The notes below the pieces were generated by a model. It was given only the letters and a program-made list of their open reading frames with translations, was not told where the DNA came from and ran no database searches. A program made the position numbers and the translations under genes. A DNA stretch of 64,000 bases from Escherichia coli (GTDB lineage Bacteria; Pseudomonadota; Gammaproteobacteria; Enterobacterales; Enterobacteriaceae): NCBI RefSeq assembly GCF_044324785.1, contig NZ_CP172127.1. The stretch is one strand, 5' to 3'. Position 1 is the first letter of the stretch. Each line of letters starts with the position of its first letter. Positions 4,311 through 52,905 of the stretch are shown here, piece after piece.

Positions 4311-4589
4311 TACCGTTGTCTCTCGTCCAGGTTTACTCCTGATAGAAAGTCATCGGCACTTGACGGTAATTACTTATGACCAAAAACCTCTTTGCGTCAC
4401 ATTTTTACAACAATTATGGCAGAGAAGAATAATGCCATTGGAATGAAGAGAGTAACGAATGGCTAAACCGAATGACGAAAAATTCTGGAAAACAGCACGC
4501 AATTTCGTCAAGTGATTATTTTCGTCCCTAAGGAAACCTCATAGGATGCCTGCGGGTGCCTGAGACTTTCTGTTTTCAGGCTAACCGGG

Positions 4590-4655
4590 AATCAGAAAGA
4601 CGAAGGCCCCGACCGATATTTCTATCAACCGAGGCCAACGAATGAACCAAGCAAT
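4590..4655 (-). ncRNA. sokB: Sok-type antisense RNA of the hokB locus (approximate boundaries)
   Basis: Minus-strand promoter-like TTGCCG-17nt-TAACAT overlapping the mokB start; hok/sok loci carry a short antisense RNA here; ends not determinable by eye. Confidence 0.35.
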
Positions 4656-4659
4656 TCAG

Positions 4660-4849
<190 letters not shown>

Positions 4850-5264: not shown

Positions 5265-5328
5265 CTTCCGATGTAGACCCGTATTCTTCGCCTGTACCAC
5301 GGGTCGGTTTTAGTACAGGCGTTTTCTT
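5265..5328 (+). ncRNA. rydC: Hfq-dependent small RNA RydC
   Basis: Sequence CTTCCGATGTAGACCCGTATTCTTCGCCTGTACCACGGGTCGGTTTTAGTACAGGCGTTTTCTT matches RydC as I recall it; TATAAT -10 at 5254-5259; terminal hairpin plus U-tract; ydcA/cybB spacer as in K-12. Confidence 0.8.
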
Positions 5329-5338
5329 TAAATATCCT

Positions 5339-5869
5339 TCAGGAACGTTTACGCGGCATCATGCGTAGAAGTGTGTTGTCCTTCCAGAAATAGTGGTGTG
5401 CCAGTGCAGCCGCAGCGTGCAACCCGATGACAAAGTATCCCAGATTCGCCAGCGTTTCATGCCACGACTTTAAGCTATCAACCCGTTCGAAATTGGCCTC
5501 TGATGCATAAGGCATCGTCATACCAAACGCAAACCACGGGTTACCCCGGTTATACATCATCACCAAACCAATCACTGGCAGCGCAATAAACAGGAGATAG
5601 ATCACCAAATGTCCCAAATGCGCCAGTCCCGTCATCATCGGTTTTGGCTTAGGTATAATCGGCGGGGTTGGGTATTTCAGCCTTAACAAAAGACGAACCA
5701 CCATCAGCACGAGAATTGTGATGCCACAGGAAACATGAATCATGTTGATGAGCGGCCGATCGCTACGTGGGAAGAAACCACGAAACTCCATTGCGCAATA
5801 CGCTGCGATAACCAGCAAAAAGACCAGCCAGTGAATGCTGATTTGTAACCTTGAGTATTTATTTTCCAT
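5339..5869 (-). CDS. cybB: cytochrome b561
   Basis: 176-aa product from MENKYSRLQISIHWLVF (track ORF has 12 extra N-terminal codons); multi-TM with conserved His; synteny. Confidence 0.9.
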   Translation of the reverse strand: MENKYSRLQISIHWLVFLLVIAAYCAMEFRGFFPRSDRPLINMIHVSCGITILVLMVVRLLLRLKYPTPPIIPKPKPMMTGLAHLGHLVIYLLFIALPVIGLVMMYNRGNPWFAFGMTMPYASEANFERVDSLKSWHETLANLGYFVIGLHAAAALAHHYFWKDNTLLRMMPRKRS

Positions 5870-6057
5870 AACATTTCCTGCTTTAAAACAATTTGCCGTT
5901 AACATAACGAGCTTTTCTTAAAATTTCATTAAATATTGTTCACCCGTTTTCAGTACGTTACGTTTCACGGCAAGAATGTAGATTGCCCATCCCGCCATCC
6001 TGGTCTAAGCCTGGAAAGGATCAATTTTCATCCGAACGTTCCTGACAGGAGAAGACC

Positions 6058-7059
6058 ATGAGTAAAGTTGGTATTAACGGTTTTGGTCGTATCGGTCGAC
6101 TGGTGTTGCGTCGATTACTTGAAGTCAAAAGCAACATAGACATTGTTGCTATTAATGATCTCACTTCCCCAAAAATTCTCGCCTACCTGTTGAAACATGA
6201 TTCAAACTACGGACCGTTCCCCTGGAGCGTTGATTTTACGGAAGATTCACTTATCGTTGATGGAAAAAGCATCGCGGTTTACGCCGAAAAAGAGGCTAAA
6301 AATATTCCATGGAAAGCGAAAGGCGCAGAAATCATTGTCGAATGTACTGGCTTTTATACCTCCGCCGAGAAATCGCAGGCGCACCTTGATGCTGGTGCGA
6401 AGAAGGTGTTGATTTCCGCCCCTGCCGGTGAAATGAAAACCATCGTTTATAACGTCAATGACGACACACTGGATGGCAACGACACCATTGTTTCCGTGGC
6501 GTCATGCACCACTAACTGCCTTGCGCCGATGGCCAAAGCCTTGCACGACAGTTTCGGAATAGAAGTCGGCACGATGACGACCATTCATGCCTATACCGGC
6601 ACTCAGTCACTGGTGGATGGTCCGCGAGGTAAAGATCTACGCGCTTCACGTGCAGCGGCAGAAAATATCATTCCCCACACTACAGGTGCGGCAAAAGCCA
6701 TTGGTCTGGTGATCCCGGAACTGAGCGGCAAACTGAAAGGTCATGCGCAACGCGTGCCGGTGAAAACAGGTTCGGTCACTGAGCTGGTATCGATTCTCGG
6801 AAAAAAAGTGACTGCCGAAGAGGTGAATAACGCACTTAAACAAGCAACCACCAATAACGAGTCATTTGGTTATACCGATGAAGAAATAGTCTCTTCCGAT
6901 ATCATTGGCAGCCATTTCGGTTCGGTGTTTGATGCCACGCAAACGGAAATTACCGCCGTGGGCGATTTACAACTGGTGAAAACGGTCGCCTGGTACGATA
7001 ACGAATATGGCTTCGTCACGCAGCTTATTCGCACCCTCGAAAAATTCGCTAAACTCTGA
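6058..7059 (+). CDS. gapC: glyceraldehyde-3-phosphate dehydrogenase paralog (intact)
   Basis: 333-aa uninterrupted ORF with NAD-binding [10 protein letters not shown] and catalytic [10 protein letters not shown] motifs; between cybB and aldA. Confidence 0.85.
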
Positions 7060-7066
7060 CGCGCAC

Positions 7067-7095
7067 AGGCGGAGGAAAAAACCTCCGCCTCTTTC
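7067..7095. terminator. hairpin between convergent gapC and aldA
   Basis: AGGCGGAGG-AAAAAA-CCTCCGCCT stem-loop followed by CTTTC; sits between two convergent stop codons. Confidence 0.5.
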
Positions 7096-7100
7096 ACTCA

Positions 7101-8540
7101 TTAAGACTGTAAATAAACCACCTGGGTCTGCAGATATTCATGCAGGCCATGTTTACCATCTGCGCCGCCAATACCAGATTTACGCCATCCGGCGTGGAAG
7201 CCTTGCATAGCTTCGAAGTTTTCACGGTTGATGTAAGTTTCACCAAACTTCAGCCCTTTAATGGCTTTCATCGCGACGTTCAGATTTTGGGTATAGATTG
7301 ATGAGGTCAGGCCGTAATCACTGTCATTAGCCATTGCGATAGCGTCTTCCAGCGTGTCAAATGCGACCACTGGCAGCACCGGGCCAAAGGTTTCCTCGTG
7401 CATAATCGACATTTCCTGGCGAACATCCAGTAGCAATGTCGGCGGATAATAATATCCTTTCCCCTCTACCGCTTTGCCACCCAACGCCACTCTCGCCCCT
7501 TCTTCTACTGCGCGCGCCACTTTTTGCTCGACCCTTTCCAGCGCCGCGGCGTTAATCAACGGCCCCATCGCAATGTCGTTGCGTTCAGCGGGGTTACCAA
7601 ATTGAACCGCCTGCATCGCTTCACCCAGCCGATTGACGAACTGATCATAAATGCCTTTCTGTACATAAACACGTTCTGCACAGTTACACACTTGCCCACT
7701 ATTAATGACGCGTGAATCAACGATGGCTTTGACTGCCAGTTCAAGATCGGCATCGTCCATTACGATAGCTGGTGCTTTACCACCCAATTCCAGACACACT
7801 TTGGTGATGTTTTTCGCCGCAGTCGCCATGATCTTTTCACCTGCAGAGACGCTGCCTGTCATACTGACCATTGCGACCTTTGGGTTACCCGCCAGTTCTT
7901 GCCCAACGGTTTCACCACGCCCCAGAACAAGGTTAAACACGCCGCGCGGAAGGCCTATTTCATCGACGATTTTGGCGAATGCAATCGCATTGTTTGGCGT
8001 AAATTCACTGGGTTTAATGACAATGGTATTACCAGTCAAAAGAGCGGGAGCCATTTTGCGGGCAATGAGGAAGAACGGGAAGTTCCACGGCAGAATGCCG
8101 GTAGTCACACCAAGCGCACGTTTAAACAGAAGAATATTTTCTCCTGGACGATCGCTTTGAATAATCTCGCCCTCGTAACGCCGTGCCCACTCCGCCATGT
8201 AATCGATATAGTCCGCAGTAAAAGCCACTTCGACTTCAGCCAGCTGCTGGATCTTGCCCCCTTCTTCAACAATCAGCGCACTGATTTCACTGGCGCGTTC
8301 GCGGATCCCGGCGGAGATTTTGCGCAACCAACTGGCGCGTTCAATGGCAGGCAACGCTTCCCATTCTGGTTGTGCACGTTCTGCTGCATCGATTGCCTTA
8401 CGGGCATCCTCGGCCTGACCATCGGGAATGCGGGAAATGACAGCCTCAGTAGCAGGGTTTACCACATCAATCCATGCGTCTCCACGCCAGGTAACAAACT
8501 GTCCATCGATATACATAGGATGTTGAACGGGTACTGACAT
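7101..8540 (-). CDS. aldA: lactaldehyde dehydrogenase
   Basis: 479-aa aldehyde dehydrogenase family ORF (catalytic Cys in GQVCNCAERVYV context, ELGGKAP motif); synteny. Confidence 0.9.
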   Translation of the reverse strand: MSVPVQHPMYIDGQFVTWRGDAWIDVVNPATEAVISRIPDGQAEDARKAIDAAERAQPEWEALPAIERASWLRKISAGIRERASEISALIVEEGGKIQQLAEVEVAFTADYIDYMAEWARRYEGEIIQSDRPGENILLFKRALGVTTGILPWNFPFFLIARKMAPALLTGNTIVIKPSEFTPNNAIAFAKIVDEIGLPRGVFNLVLGRGETVGQELAGNPKVAMVSMTGSVSAGEKIMATAAKNITKVCLELGGKAPAIVMDDADLELAVKAIVDSRVINSGQVCNCAERVYVQKGIYDQFVNRLGEAMQAVQFGNPAERNDIAMGPLINAAALERVEQKVARAVEEGARVALGGKAVEGKGYYYPPTLLLDVRQEMSIMHEETFGPVLPVVAFDTLEDAIAMANDSDYGLTSSIYTQNLNVAMKAIKGLKFGETYINRENFEAMQGFHAGWRKSGIGGADGKHGLHEYLQTQVVYLQS

Positions 8541-9926: not shown

Positions 9927-10421
9927 ATGAAAAAAATGTTTCAACTTTTAGAAACCGCCTGGCCTGCCGTAAAAACAACAGGACTTACAGGTTGCGTAAC
10001 CGCTCCGGAAACTGAAGATAACCTTCTTTTATTAGAGGATAAATACGCAACACATATTCCAAAAGACTATCGGCAGTTATTGTCTCATTTTGGCGCATGT
10101 CATTTTGCCGATCCTCAAATTTATACTTTGAAGGATCTGGACAGATATTACCCTCTATTTTTGCAACAATGGGAAGATTATAAAAAAGAATATCCATTAT
10201 TGAACAACATTGATCCTTTTCCTGTTGGCAGTTTTGGCGATGGGAGTGTAGCTTTTCTTGACCGCAACAGCCTAAAAATTTATATTCTCATTCATGATTT
10301 TGGTATATTTTCCGATGATGTCGGTGATTTCCCTTGTGAGTTATGCTTTGAAAATTTTGGTGAGTTAGTGGAAATGCAAGTTGAAATGATTCTTTATTTA
10401 CAGCAATGTGGAGTCTCATGA
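9927..10421 (+). CDS. hypothetical protein, candidate SMI1/KNR4 (SUKH-1)-like immunity protein
   Basis: 164-aa ORF in visibly AT-rich DNA; motifs IPKDYRQLL...FG and PFPVGSFGDGSVAFLD resemble SUKH/SMI1 family signatures; weak SD, start uncertain (ATG at 9927 or 9936). Confidence 0.45.
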   Translation: MKKMFQLLETAWPAVKTTGLTGCVTAPETEDNLLLLEDKYATHIPKDYRQLLSHFGACHFADPQIYTLKDLDRYYPLFLQQWEDYKKEYPLLNNIDPFPVGSFGDGSVAFLDRNSLKIYILIHDFGIFSDDVGDFPCELCFENFGELVEMQVEMILYLQQCGVS

Positions 10422-10717
10422 AAAATAAAATCATCACTCCTGTCCTTACTGAAAACAAAGTGAATTTGATAGCAGAAAAATATTGTAAAAAGTATAATCT
10501 TAATGGCTCGCTGGCATACAAAATCACTGCTATTAAATTTCTTCCTGATGGTATGAAATCATACGACCTTGATATTCCATTATGGATGGTAGTCAGAGAT
10601 GTTAAAGGTTGGGATGATATGGAAATTACGATTTTTATTTCTGACAAAAACAGTGAAGTTCTTTGTTGCAGTAATATTTGGTATCCAGTATATCGTCCTC
10701 ATCAAGCAGATTTGTAA
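10406..10717 (+). CDS. hypothetical protein (no recognisable family)
   Basis: 103-aa ORF overlapping the preceding ORF by 16 nt, GGAG 4 nt upstream of ATG (translational coupling); AT-rich. Confidence 0.4.
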   Translation: MWSLMKNKIITPVLTENKVNLIAEKYCKKYNLNGSLAYKITAIKFLPDGMKSYDLDIPLWMVVRDVKGWDDMEITIFISDKNSEVLCCSNIWYPVYRPHQADL

Positions 10718-10763
10718 TAAGCACGTAAGGAGTATCTCCCTTGCTATTTTTCAGAATTCATAA

Positions 10764-37343: not shown

Positions 37344-40300
37344 ATGATTACTATTGACGGTAATGGCGCGGTTGCTTCGGTGGCGTTTCGCACCAGTGAA
37401 GTTATCGCCATCTACCCTATTACCCCCAGTTCCACGATGGCAGAACAGGCTGATGCATGGGCCGGAAACGGCTTGAAAAACGTCTGGGGAGACACACCAC
37501 GCGTGGTTGAAATGCAGTCGGAAGCAGGTGCTATCGCTACCGTGCATGGCGCTTTGCAGACGGGTGCCCTTTCAACATCGTTTACGTCATCGCAGGGTTT
37601 GCTGCTGATGATCCCGACGCTGTACAAACTGGCAGGCGAACTCACACCGTTTGTCCTACATGTAGCGGCACGTACCGTTGCCACACATGCACTCTCTATT
37701 TTTGGCGATCATTCCGACGTCATGGCGGTGCGCCAGACGGGTTGCGCGATGTTGTGTGCGGCAAACGTCCAGGAAGCGCAAGACTTTGCTCTCATTTCGC
37801 ACATCGCGACGCTGAAAAGCCGCGTGCCATTTATTCATTTCTTTGATGGTTTCCGCACGTCCCACGAAATCAATAAAATTGTCCCGCTGGCCGATGACAC
37901 GATTCTTGATCTCATGCCGCAGGCCGAAATTGATGCTCATCGCGCCCGGGCACTCAACCCGGAACATCCGGTGATCCGCGGTACGTCCGCCAATCCTGAC
38001 ACTTATTTCCAGTCTCGCGAAGCCACCAACCCCTGGTACAACGCGGTCTATGACCATGTTGAGCAGGCGATGAATGATTTCGCTGCCGCGACAGGTCGTC
38101 AGTATCAGCCGTTTGAGTATTACGGGCATCCGCAAGCTGAACGAGTGATTATCCTGATGGGCTCAGCCATTGGCACCTGTGAAGAAGTGGTTGATGAATT
38201 GCTAACCCGTGGCGAAAAAGTCGGCGTGCTGAAAATTCGCCTGTACCGCCCCTTCTCAGCCAAACACTTGCTACAAGCTCTGCCGGGATCCGTACGCAGC
38301 GTGGCGGTACTGGACAGAACCAAAGAACCCGGTGCCCAGGCAGAACCGCTCTATCTGGATGTGATGACCGCACTGGCAGAAGCCTTTAATAATGGCGAGC
38401 GCGAAACCCTGCCCCGTGTCATTGGTGGGCGCTATGGTCTTTCATCCAAAGAATTTGGCCCGGACTGTGTACTGGCGGTATTTGCCGAGCTCAACGCGGC
38501 TAAACCGAAAGCGCGCTTTACGGTTGGTATTTACGATGATGTGACCAATCTGTCACTGCCGTTGCCGGAAAACACCCTGCCAAACTCGGCGAAACTTGAA
38601 GCCTTGTTTTATGGCCTTGGTAGTGATGGCAGCGTTTCCGCGACCAAAAACAATATCAAGATTATCGGTAATTCCACGCCGTGGTACGCACAGGGCTATT
38701 TTGTTTACGACTCCAAAAAGGCGGGCGGCCTGACGGTTTCTCACCTTCGCGTGAGCGAGCAGCCGATTCGTTCCGCTTATCTCATTTCCCAGGCTGATTT
38801 TGTTGGCTGCCACCAGTTGCAGTTTATCGATAAATATCAGATGGTTGAACGTTTAAAACCTAGCGGCATTTTCCTGCTCAACACGCCGTACAGCGCAGAT
38901 GAAGTGTGGTCGCGCTTGCCGCAGGAAGTTCAGGCCGTGTTAAACCAGAAAAAAGCGCGCTTCTATGTGATTAACGCGGCGAAAATCGCCCGCGAATGTG
39001 GCCTGGCGGCCCGTATTAATACCGTCATGCAGATGGCTTTTTTCCATCTGACGCAAATTCTGCCTGGCGATAGCGCCCTCGCAGAATTGCAGGGTGCGAT
39101 TGCCAAAAGTTACAGTAGCAAAGGTCAGGATCTGGTGGAGCGCAACTGGCAGGCTCTGGCGCTGGCGCGTGAATCCGTAGAAGAAGTTCCGTTGCAGCCG
39201 GTTAATCCGCACAGCGCCAATCGACCGCCTGTGGTTTCCGATGCCGCTCCTGATTTCGTGAAAACCGTTACCGCGGCGATGCTCGCCGGGCTTGGTGATG
39301 CCCTCCCCGTTTCGGCGCTGCCGCCAGACGGCACCTGGCCGATGGGCACCACGCGCTGGGAAAAACGCAATATCGCCGAAGAGATCCCCATCTGGAAAGA
39401 GGAACTCTGTACCCAATGTAACCACTGCGTCGCCGCTTGCCCACACTCAGCTATTCGCGCAAAAGTGGTACCGCCTGAAGCGATGGAAAACGCCCCTGCC
39501 AGCCTGCATTCGCTGGATGTGAAATCGCGTGATATGCGCGGGCAGAAATATGTCTTGCAGGTGGCACCGGAAGATTGCACCGGCTGTAACCTGTGCGTCG
39601 AAGTTTGCCCGGCGAAAGACCGTCAGAATCCAGAGATTAAAGCCATCAATATGATGTCGCGCCTGGAACATGTCGAAGAAGAGAAAATCAATTACGATTT
39701 CTTCCTCAACCTGCCAGAAATCGACCGTAGCAAACTGGAACGTATTGATATTCGTACATCGCAGCTGATTACACCGCTGTTTGAATATTCAGGTGCTTGC
39801 TCCGGTTGTGGCGAGACGCCGTATATTAAATTGCTGACTCAGCTCTATGGCGACCGGATGTTGATCGCTAACGCCACGGGCTGTTCTTCAATTTATGGCG
39901 GTAACCTGCCCTCTACACCGTATACTACCGATGCCAACGGTCGAGGACCGGCATGGGCGAACTCGCTGTTTGAAGATAACGCCGAATTTGGCCTTGGTTT
40001 CCGCCTGACGGTCGATCAACACCGTGTCCGCGTGCTGCGTCTGCTGGATCAATTTGCCGATAAAATCCCGGCTGAATTACTAACTGCGTTGAAATCAGAC
40101 GCCACGCCAGAGGTTCGTCGTGAACAGGTTGCAGCTTTACGCCAGCAACTCAAAGATGTTGCCGAAGCACATGAACTGCTACGTGACGCAGATGCGCTGG
40201 TGGAAAAATCAATCTGGCTGATTGGCGGCGACGGCTGGGCTTACGATATCGGCTTTGGCGGTTTGGATCATGTATTGAGTTTGACAGAAAACGTCAACAT

Positions 40301-40868
40301 TCTGGTGCTGGATACGCAATGCTATTCCAACACCGGTGGTCAGGCGTCGAAAGCGACACCGCTGGGTGCAGTAACTAAGTTCGGCGAGCACGGCAAACGT
40401 AAAGCGCGTAAAGATCTTGGCGTCAGTATGATGATGTACGGTCATGTTTATGTGGCGCAGATTTCTCTCGGCGCGCAGCTCAACCAGACGGTGAAAGCGA
40501 TTCAGGAAGCGGAAGCGTATCCGGGGCCATCGCTGATCATCGCTTATAGCCCCTGTGAAGAGCATGGTTACGATCTGGCACTCAGTCACGACCAGATGCG
40601 CCAACTCACTGCTACCGGCTTCTGGCCGCTATATCGCTTTGATCCGCGTCGTGCCGATGAAGGCAAACTGCCGCTGGCGCTGGATTCACGCCCGCCGTCA
40701 GAAGCACTGGAAGAAACGTTACTTCATGAGCAGCGTTTCCGTCGTCTGAATTCGCTGCAGCCAGAAGTGGCAGAACAGTTATGGAAAGATGCTGCAGCTG
40801 ATTTGCAAAAACGCTATGACTTCCTGGCACAAATGGCCGGAAAAGCGGAAAAAAGCAACACCGATTAA
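37344..40868 (+). CDS. ydbK: pyruvate:flavodoxin/ferredoxin oxidoreductase (PFOR)
   Basis: 1174-aa ORF with two 4Fe-4S ferredoxin motifs (CTQCNHCVAACP, CTGCNLCVEVCP) and TPP-binding region (GGDGWAYDIGFGG). Confidence 0.95.
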   Translation: MITIDGNGAVASVAFRTSEVIAIYPITPSSTMAEQADAWAGNGLKNVWGDTPRVVEMQSEAGAIATVHGALQTGALSTSFTSSQGLLLMIPTLYKLAGELTPFVLHVAARTVATHALSIFGDHSDVMAVRQTGCAMLCAANVQEAQDFALISHIATLKSRVPFIHFFDGFRTSHEINKIVPLADDTILDLMPQAEIDAHRARALNPEHPVIRGTSANPDTYFQSREATNPWYNAVYDHVEQAMNDFAAATGRQYQPFEYYGHPQAERVIILMGSAIGTCEEVVDELLTRGEKVGVLKIRLYRPFSAKHLLQALPGSVRSVAVLDRTKEPGAQAEPLYLDVMTALAEAFNNGERETLPRVIGGRYGLSSKEFGPDCVLAVFAELNAAKPKARFTVGIYDDVTNLSLPLPENTLPNSAKLEALFYGLGSDGSVSATKNNIKIIGNSTPWYAQGYFVYDSKKAGGLTVSHLRVSEQPIRSAYLISQADFVGCHQLQFIDKYQMVERLKPSGIFLLNTPYSADEVWSRLPQEVQAVLNQKKARFYVINAAKIARECGLAARINTVMQMAFFHLTQILPGDSALAELQGAIAKSYSSKGQDLVERNWQALALARESVEEVPLQPVNPHSANRPPVVSDAAPDFVKTVTAAMLAGLGDALPVSALPPDGTWPMGTTRWEKRNIAEEIPIWKEELCTQCNHCVAACPHSAIRAKVVPPEAMENAPASLHSLDVKSRDMRGQKYVLQVAPEDCTGCNLCVEVCPAKDRQNPEIKAINMMSRLEHVEEEKINYDFFLNLPEIDRSKLERIDIRTSQLITPLFEYSGACSGCGETPYIKLLTQLYGDRMLIANATGCSSIYGGNLPSTPYTTDANGRGPAWANSLFEDNAEFGLGFRLTVDQHRVRVLRLLDQFADKIPAELLTALKSDATPEVRREQVAALRQQLKDVAEAHELLRDADALVEKSIWLIGGDGWAYDIGFGGLDHVLSLTENVNILVLDTQCYSNTGGQASKATPLGAVTKFGEHGKRKARKDLGVSMMMYGHVYVAQISLGAQLNQTVKAIQEAEAYPGPSLIIAYSPCEEHGYDLALSHDQMRQLTATGFWPLYRFDPRRADEGKLPLALDSRPPSEALEETLLHEQRFRRLNSLQPEVAEQLWKDAAADLQKRYDFLAQMAGKAEKSNTD

Positions 40869-40896
40869 ATGTTCTGGATAAGAATTATCCAATTCT

Positions 40897-41006
40897 AAAA
40901 AAAAGCCCGAACGACTGTTCGGGCTTGTCTTTTTATATGTTGGAAAATCAGTGGCAATGCAATGGCCCAACAGAAAATAAAATCTGTGACAATAAAGGCA
41001 TATAAC
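40897..41006 (-). ncRNA. micC: small RNA MicC (repressor of ompC/ompD mRNAs)
   Basis: Minus strand reads GTTATATGCCTTTATTGTCACAGATTTTATTTTCTGTTGGGCCATTGCATTGCCACTGATTTTCC...AAGCCCGAACAGTCGTTCGGGCTTTTTTTT, matching MicC; ydbK/ompN spacer; its hairpin doubles as ydbK terminator. Confidence 0.85.
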
Positions 41007-41233
41007 CCGCGCAGAATAACGTATAGCAAATTAAAAGTATAATTTTTATTTTGTATGTATTATCTCCAATACATTCACCAGACTTATTATCATTTCAGAA
41101 GAATTATTTGATTAAGGTTTTACTTAAGGCGTAACAAATAATATTTATCGGCTAACTGAACTTCTCCTTTAGGATGTTTTCACTCCCCGAAATGGGGATA
41201 AAAGGCAAATAAAATAACTAAAGGATTTATTCA

Positions 41234-45815: not shown

Positions 45816-45937
45816 AAAAAAAAGCCGACTCATCAAAGTCGGCGTCGTACGAATCAATTGTGCTATGCAGTAATTCAAAAAAGGAAGTAAGACAATATGG
45901 AGCGCAACGCCCATCGCTTGACGTTGCATTCACCTGC
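45816..45937 (-). ncRNA. fnrS: FNR-activated small RNA FnrS
   Basis: Minus strand reads GCAGGTGAATGCAACGTCAAGCGATGGGCGTTGCGCTCCATATTGTCTTACTTCC...GAGTCGGCTTTTTTTT, matching FnrS; zntB/dbpA spacer as in K-12. Confidence 0.85.
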
Positions 45938-52803: not shown

Positions 52804-52898
52804 ACCGGTCACCAGGACCCCAGGCCGGATTTAAGACGAGGATGCACTGCTGTGTGTACTGTAGAGTCTGGCGGATGTCGACAGACTCTATTTTTTTA
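52804..52898 (+). ncRNA. mcaS: small RNA McaS (IsrA)
   Basis: ACCGGTCACCAGGACCCCAGGCCGGATTTAAGACGAGGATGCACTGCTGTGTGTACTGTAGAGTCTGGCGGATGTCGACAGACTCTATTTTTTT matches McaS as I recall it; terminator hairpin plus U-tract; convergent with abgR. Confidence 0.8.
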
Positions 52899-52905
52899 TG
52901 CAGTT

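Follow-up and report, generated by a model that had tools for sequence, protein, structure and literature searches.

The gapC Locus

The stretch of DNA that was analyzed, further referred to as the window, comprises 64,000 nucleotides of Escherichia coli contig NZ_CP172127.1. Its gapC gene is located at positions 6058–7059 on the plus strand and is read from an ATG start through 333 codons to a TGA stop at 7057–7059, with zero internal stops, so that the uninterrupted reading frame described in the first-pass annotation is confirmed. The gene is flanked by cybB (5339–5869, minus strand), from which it diverges, and by aldA (7101–8540, minus strand), with which it converges. In K-12 and strain N3, gapC has these two neighbors in identical order, which identifies the locus as the gapC locus of E. 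coli. Just downstream of cybB, a match to the RydC family of Rfam was found at 5265–5328 (gathering threshold).

A Shine–Dalgarno sequence, AGGAG, can be read on the plus strand at 6047–6051, 6 nt 5′ of the ATG. Such a site had been proposed earlier, and the string then quoted, CAGGAGAAGACC, corresponds to positions 6046–6057. In an alignment, the block around this site, CTGACAGGAGAA.ACCATGAG, is kept in 14 E. coli alleles as well as in Citrobacter. The divergent intergenic region between cybB and gapC (5870–6057; plus strand with respect to gapC) presumably contains the gapC promoter. Two blocks within this region, TTGCCC (5983–5988) and CTGGTCTAAGCCTGG (6000–6014), are common to the aligned sequences of E. 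coli, Citrobacter, and Klebsiella. Based on this cross-genus conservation and on the K-12 literature discussed below, the promoter is presumed to lie at these blocks. A consensus scan of positions 5800–7200 did not reveal a sigma-70 consensus promoter.

At the other end of the gene, the 41-bp spacer between gapC and aldA contains a 9-bp G+C-rich hairpin (7067–7090; no strand assigned) with the core GGCGGAGG-AAAAAA-CCTCCGCC. Folded as RNA, it has an energy of -18.5 kcal/mol (z = -4.2), and none of 200 shuffled sequences was as stable. With its weak T-run, the hairpin was missed by the scan for consensus terminators. It is likely to be the shared transcription stop of gapC and aldA. The gapC gene is monocistronic.

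Family Membership and Catalytic Residues

The NAD-binding and active-site motifs on which the initial assignment to the glyceraldehyde-3-phosphate dehydrogenases (GAPDHs) was based are both present in the translation, and the Pfam and NCBIfam models agree with them. The Rossmann-fold dinucleotide-binding motif INGFGRIGR is encoded by codons 6–14 (6073–6099, plus strand), and the active site SCTTNCLAP, containing the nucleophile Cys150 and additionally Cys154, by codons 149–157 (6502–6528, plus strand). The protein has the two-domain architecture in Pfam, i.e., an N-terminal NAD-binding Rossmann domain (Gp_dh_N, residues 3–102, E = 2.9e-35) and a C-terminal catalytic domain (Gp_dh_C, residues 155–313, E = 1.2e-57). 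The NCBIfam equivalog for GAPDH type I, TIGR01534, is matched over its entire length (profile 1–330 of 330) with 446.7 bits at a cut-off of 367.2 (E = 4.8e-134). These motif and domain matches in 6058–7059 are far beyond chance.

The more specialized models fit less well. The two models for erythrose-4-phosphate dehydrogenase (Epd) both failed, TIGR01532 scoring 276.5 bits against a cut-off of 530.55 and NF010058 scoring 279.8 against 539. The model of the ArsJ-associated GAPDH, NF033735, failed as well (307.3 bits, cut-off 450), and GapC stays far under the cut-offs of the other specialized GAPDH models of NCBIfam. An arsJ gene is not among the neighbors of gapC, its flanks being cybB and aldA.

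At the level of single residues, G8, G10, G13, D34, C150, H177, T180, T182, P189, and R232 are all present; the codons of Asp34 and His177 are found on the plus strand at 6157–6159 and 6586–6588, respectively. Cys150, His177, Thr180, Thr182, and Arg232 occupy the same positions as numbered in the structures of EcGAPDH1, an E. coli enzyme treated in the next section. Asp34 and Pro189 are, in line with established GAPDH knowledge, the NAD-preferring residues that are known as Asp32 and Pro188 in the numbering of Bacillus stearothermophilus.

Enzymatic Mechanism

The GapC protein of the window is identical, over its full length, at 332 of 333 residues to EcGAPDH1 (PDB 7C5F) and its mutant series (7C5G-R). 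Both are products of the same gene, and all catalytic residues are shared. The sole difference is at position 29, where the window encodes isoleucine and EcGAPDH1 has valine. Val29 is the crystallized and commonest allele, whereas the Ile29 of the window is a conservative change that places here the residue which GapA has as well.

EcGAPDH1 has been purified, assayed, and crystallized with NAD, phosphate, glyceraldehyde-3-phosphate (G3P), the thioacyl intermediate, and 1,3-bisphosphoglycerate (Zhang et al., 2021, Biomolecules; PMC8615399). The enzyme turns over G3P with NAD, with a Km for G3P of 0.73 mM, in assays at pH 10 and 50°C (PMC8615399). Mutagenesis identified C150 and H177 as essential residues: C150A is inactive, and activity drops 10^3 to 10^4-fold in C150S and H177A (Zhang et al., 2021; PMC8615399). 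For the characterization of the wild-type enzyme, the same paper cites work from 2020 by Zhang et al. (Acta Cryst F 76:406). The lowest RMSD of EcGAPDH1, 1.0 Å, is with the Staphylococcus aureus enzyme (PMC8615399).

Because this near-identical protein has been assayed and all relevant residues are found in GapC of the window, the biochemical mechanism is essentially shown, for the Val29 protein, rather than inferred. By analogy with EcGAPDH1, Cys150 of the window protein would attack the aldehyde of G3P with His177 acting as base, the hydride would be passed to NAD+ with formation of a thioacyl-enzyme, and inorganic phosphate would then cleave the thioester to release 1,3-bisphosphoglycerate. 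The gene is very probably functional. We consider it highly likely that gapC of the window is an intact wild-type allele encoding a classical tetrameric, NAD-dependent, phosphorylating GAPDH (EC 1.2.1.12) that acts as an accessory isozyme.

Relation to GapA, Epd, and Eukaryotic GAPDHs

GapC shares the fold, the catalytic Cys and His, the SCTTNCLAP motif, and NAD-dependence with GapA, the housekeeping enzyme, but the two proteins are only 47% identical. They also differ in conservation within the species: in 5424 genomes, gapA is conserved to 99% or more, whereas gapC has 95–99% identity in most. Epd (GapB) has the superfamily and the domain pair in common with GapC, but the identity of GapC to K-12 Epd amounts to 40% and GapC fails the Epd cut-offs.

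In the first-pass annotation, the protein was placed in a eukaryote-like GapC lineage. This placement does not hold when lineage is judged by the reciprocal bit scores of GapC and GapA against the same PDB entries (for GapC, among its top 60 matches). GapA reaches 466–495 bits against eukaryotic cytosolic GAPDH entries and GapC about 303–316 against the same. For the lobster enzyme (1GPD), the scores are 314 bits for GapC and 467 for GapA, and for yeast TDH3 (3PYM) 303 and 483, respectively. The human enzyme (1U8F) and Arabidopsis "GAPC1, cytosolic" (4Z0H) are matched by GapA with 483 and 469 bits, and fall outside the top 60 of GapC, i.e., below 302 bits. The 303–314 bits of GapC against the eukaryotic entries among its top matches contrast with 463 bits against the GAPDH of Lactobacillus acidophilus (5J9G). 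On these scores, the eukaryote-like paralog of E. coli is GapA and not GapC. That plant GapC bears the same name is coincidental.

Besides the L. acidophilus enzyme, GapC matches the S. aureus GAPDHs (3K73/3HQ4) with about 404–408 bits and the chains 6IQM, 8HMN, and 7WWW with 463–482 bits. A further group of chains at about 415 bits is presumably from Streptococcus, 4QX6 being taken to be the enzyme of S. agalactiae. Among solved structures with a nameable organism, the nearest relatives of GapC are the GAPDHs of Lactobacillus, Staphylococcus and, presumably, Streptococcus. These belong to another phylum and are the main glycolytic enzyme in those bacteria, whereas GapC of E. coli is an accessory copy.

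The Lesions of K-12

It had been noted before that gapC is a pseudogene in K-12, and this is in agreement with the RefSeq annotation, which reads "frameshifted; internal stop" for MC4100 and "pseudogene gapC b4493" for MG1655. The K-12 pseudogene (b4493; formerly gapC_1, b1417, and gapC_2, b1416) shares the locus and the cybB and aldA flanks with the window. The alignment with K-12 gapC that had been suggested as a check was carried out with the MC4100 pseudogene. Over 1002 nt, the pairwise alignment has 97% DNA identity with 28 differences, approximately 22 of which are at third positions, and it locates two disabling lesions.

The first lesion site is position 6172 (plus strand), where the window has an A (AAA, Lys39) and K-12 a T, turning codon 39 into the stop codon TAA. 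The second site is the run of seven A residues at 6801–6807 (plus strand; codons 248–250, GGA AAA AAA), which has lost 1 bp in K-12. The resulting A6 run causes a frameshift straight into a TGA. The window has neither lesion. The frameshift matches the historical division of the gene into gapC_1 and gapC_2. K-12 gapC additionally carries R18G compared to the window.

At least one genome, that of strain EH08-18-36, carries the stop at codon 39 but not the frameshift, which fits an order of events in which the nonsense mutation came first and the frameshift second. In the K-12-like lineage, which represents about a fifth of the sequenced genomes, gapC would then have been lost by a nonsense mutation followed by a frameshift.

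Intact and Broken Alleles in E. coli

Of 5426 complete E. coli genomes, 5417 have the gapC locus, 5408 of them at full length with 96–100% DNA identity. Five records classed as plasmids were matched as well. To count the alleles at codon 39 and at the A-run, allele-specific queries of 32 nt were used on the same 5426 genomes. The sense allele AAA39 was detected in 3711 genomes and the K-12 allele TAA39 in 1154 (approximately 21%), the remaining genomes, about 552, having other SNPs within the probe. The A6 allele of K-12 was detected in 1046 genomes. A 33-nt query for the A7 allele gave no match, probably because its A-run was masked as low-complexity sequence, and how often this site is intact is derived from the complementary A6 count together with the match lengths. 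In an evenly spaced sample of 39 full-length matches, seven were 1 bp short. Altogether, most E. coli genomes have an intact gapC, roughly three quarters of them, with an upper bound near 79%.

Annotation of individual copies is in line with these counts. Twelve full-length copies were sampled blindly among the matches that are not short, including those of O157:H7, O111, NC101, ECOR29, and an ETEC strain, and all 12 are annotated as intact 333-aa proteins, as is the copy of N3, the best match to the window. The exact protein of the window can be found on no fewer than 1000 public contigs and is identical to WP_000048646.1, the product in N3 and CUVET16-394. Other forms of damage have been found too. 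In LF82, an in-frame deletion of 57 bp removes 19 aa just before Cys150, and some variants have C-terminal frameshifts that lead to products of 383 aa.

An evenly spaced listing of TAA39 carriers consists mostly of natural isolates and not of K-12 derivatives. Their sources are humans, pigs, poultry, dogs, vegetables, fish meat, bullfrog, and marine sediment, and the listed 6A carriers include river water. As TAA39 is mostly found in natural isolates, the lesion is a lineage polymorphism and not a product of laboratory domestication. The K-12-type lesion thus predates domestication, contrary to some descriptions.

The earlier suggestion that this strain may express a third GAPDH alongside gapA and epd stands in part. 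An intact paralog does coexist with both genes, but this is not special to the strain, the intact state being that of the majority. As gapA was found in 5425 of the 5426 genomes, and epd likewise in 5425, having a third paralog is the normal condition of E. coli.

Selection and History

For a set of 13 intact alleles, dN averages 0.004 and dS 0.086, resulting in a ratio of 0.046; 66 of the 79 polymorphic sites are at third codon positions. This pattern points to strong purifying selection on the protein. Orthologs with 87–90% identity are found in Citrobacter, Klebsiella, Trabulsiella, Phytobacter, Scandinavium, and [Enterobacter] lignolyticus, and the ortholog of E. albertii has 97% identity. 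Citrobacter retains the arrangement cybB-gapC-aldA-ydcF-hrpA, and in Klebsiella the part gapC-aldA-ydcF is conserved. In addition, the G+C content of gapC, 48.1%, is close to the window mean of 48.8%. From the orthologs, the synteny, and the local G+C content, it follows that gapC has long been established in this branch of the Enterobacteriaceae.

It has been stated that gapC was laterally acquired by E. coli (PMC1796617). At the level of the species, this is rejected by the synteny with Citrobacter and Klebsiella and by the local G+C content. An older transfer of gapC into an enterobacterial ancestor is conceivable.

Expression and Role

The evidence on gapC regulation all comes from K-12, in which the product is truncated. 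The intergenic region of gapC_1 and cybB contains a sigma-S ChIP-seq peak (PMC4447067). Transcripts of gapC are increased in slow-growing PTS- strains and decreased upon inactivation of rpoS (PMC2759082), and gapC_1 is among the genes with changed expression in carbon-limited chemostats (PMC4512719). According to PMC2949598, a paper from the Espinosa-Urgel group, Espinosa-Urgel and Kolter (1998) reported that environmental isolates have an intact gapC and express it preferentially in fresh water. In the searchable literature, no phenotype of gapC loss in E. coli was found. Knock-outs of genes called gapA and gapC in Klebsiella pneumoniae (PMC8243499) were not used, as these names are not confidently mappable to the E. 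coli paralogs.

Considering these data together, the most likely role of GapC is that of a sigma-S-dependent accessory GAPDH for slow growth or life outside the host. The protein would act as an accessory isozyme beside the housekeeping enzyme GapA. Transcription would start mainly from a sigma-S-dependent promoter, in conditions of slow growth, carbon limitation, or life outside the host, and the gene would be retained by purifying selection in most E. coli. As approximately 21% of the genomes do without it, gapC is dispensable in at least some niches.

A stronger version of this role is possible, although it is put forward here with considerable reserve: GapC might not be a redundant spare but a niche-specific, sigma-S-driven isozyme that helps the cell to survive at low temperature or away from the host, in which case loss of gapC would be the sign of an ecological shift. 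A large natural lineage, comprising about 1150 of the 5426 genomes, is fixed for the K-12-type null allele (TAA39, later 6A), and its members were sampled from humans, pigs, poultry, dogs, water, and sediment.

It is improbable that gapC of the window, while intact, is cryptic, i.e., not meaningfully expressed and becoming a pseudogene as in K-12. Such a state would be in keeping with the independent routes of decay (nonsense and frameshift in K-12, the genome with the nonsense codon only, the LF82 deletion, and the 383-aa variants), the lack of a consensus promoter in the scan described above, and the approximately 21% of genomes that dispense with the gene. However, the dN/dS of 0.046 extends across divergent phylogroups and argues for ongoing selection on the protein, and the gene and its synteny are kept across genera. 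Moreover, the Shine–Dalgarno sequence and the upstream blocks are conserved, and the promoter region is bound by sigma-S and transcriptionally responsive even in K-12.

Still less credit can be given to the idea that GapC has the GAPDH fold but a main substrate or role other than glycolytic G3P oxidation, such as erythrose-4-phosphate (Epd-like), an ArsJ-type function, the NADP-dependent gluconeogenic GapB type, or a moonlighting function at the cell surface. GapA already serves glycolysis in E. coli, gapC has been grouped with putative gluconeogenic, rpoS-dependent genes (PMC2759082), and the L. acidophilus enzyme is among the nearest solved relatives; for a related GAPDH, that of L. johnsonii, release and binding of host components have been reported. 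Against this, the near-identical EcGAPDH1 uses G3P and NAD. The Epd models (277–280 bits vs. 530–539) and the ArsJ-type model (307 vs. 450) fail while the GAPDH-I equivalog passes, Asp34 and Pro189 favor NAD, and there is no adjacent arsJ.

Strains outside the K-12-like lineage probably have two active phosphorylating GAPDHs. This is relevant to metabolic models, the design of gapA knock-outs, and flux engineering that are based on K-12 assumptions. The intactness of gapC outside K-12, the enzyme activity, and the crystal structure are all published, and the significance beyond correct annotation is slight. The small additions made here are the window coordinates of the two K-12 lesions, the null-allele frequency of approximately 21%, and the correction that the eukaryote-like paralog of E. 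coli is GapA and not GapC.

The Rest of the Window and Strain N3

Compared to the 5426 complete E. coli genomes, the window is best matched by N3, isolated from a human rectal swab, at 99.1%, and all others are at about 97.4%. Given these values, the source lineage of the window seems to be sparsely sampled. N3 is identical to the window at gapC and has 98.5–99.1% identity elsewhere. In N3 (NZ_CP031609.1), aldA, nifJ, ynaL, abgB, and an MFS transporter gene are flagged as frameshifted, whereas the corresponding reading frames in the window are intact, for example aldA (7101–8540) and nifJ/ydbK (37344–40868). The N3 frameshifts look like homopolymer errors of the assembly rather than biology.

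A two-gene insert is located between ydcF and hrpA (9927–10720, plus strand). It encodes a protein of the SMI1/KNR4 family, for which NCBIfam gave no match, and an ORF of about 100 aa. The insert is annotated in N3 and absent from the MC4100 locus of K-12.

On the minus strand, a single uninterrupted ORF of 2561 aa spans 23774–31459. It matches the model of autotransporter adhesin BigA with 2081 bits, below the cut-off of 3400, and contains tandem repeats of about 294 bp at about 27.9–31.1 kb. The N3 counterpart is annotated as two pieces, one of which is frameshifted. The K-12 counterpart, ydbA, is an IS-interrupted pseudogene, so that this ORF would represent a further K-12 pseudogene with an intact copy in the window.

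Lastly, several small RNAs match their Rfam families at the gathering threshold, namely the sok antitoxin (sokB of the hokB locus) at 4554–4705, MicC at 40889–41009, FnrS at 45820–45937, and McaS at 52804–52899.
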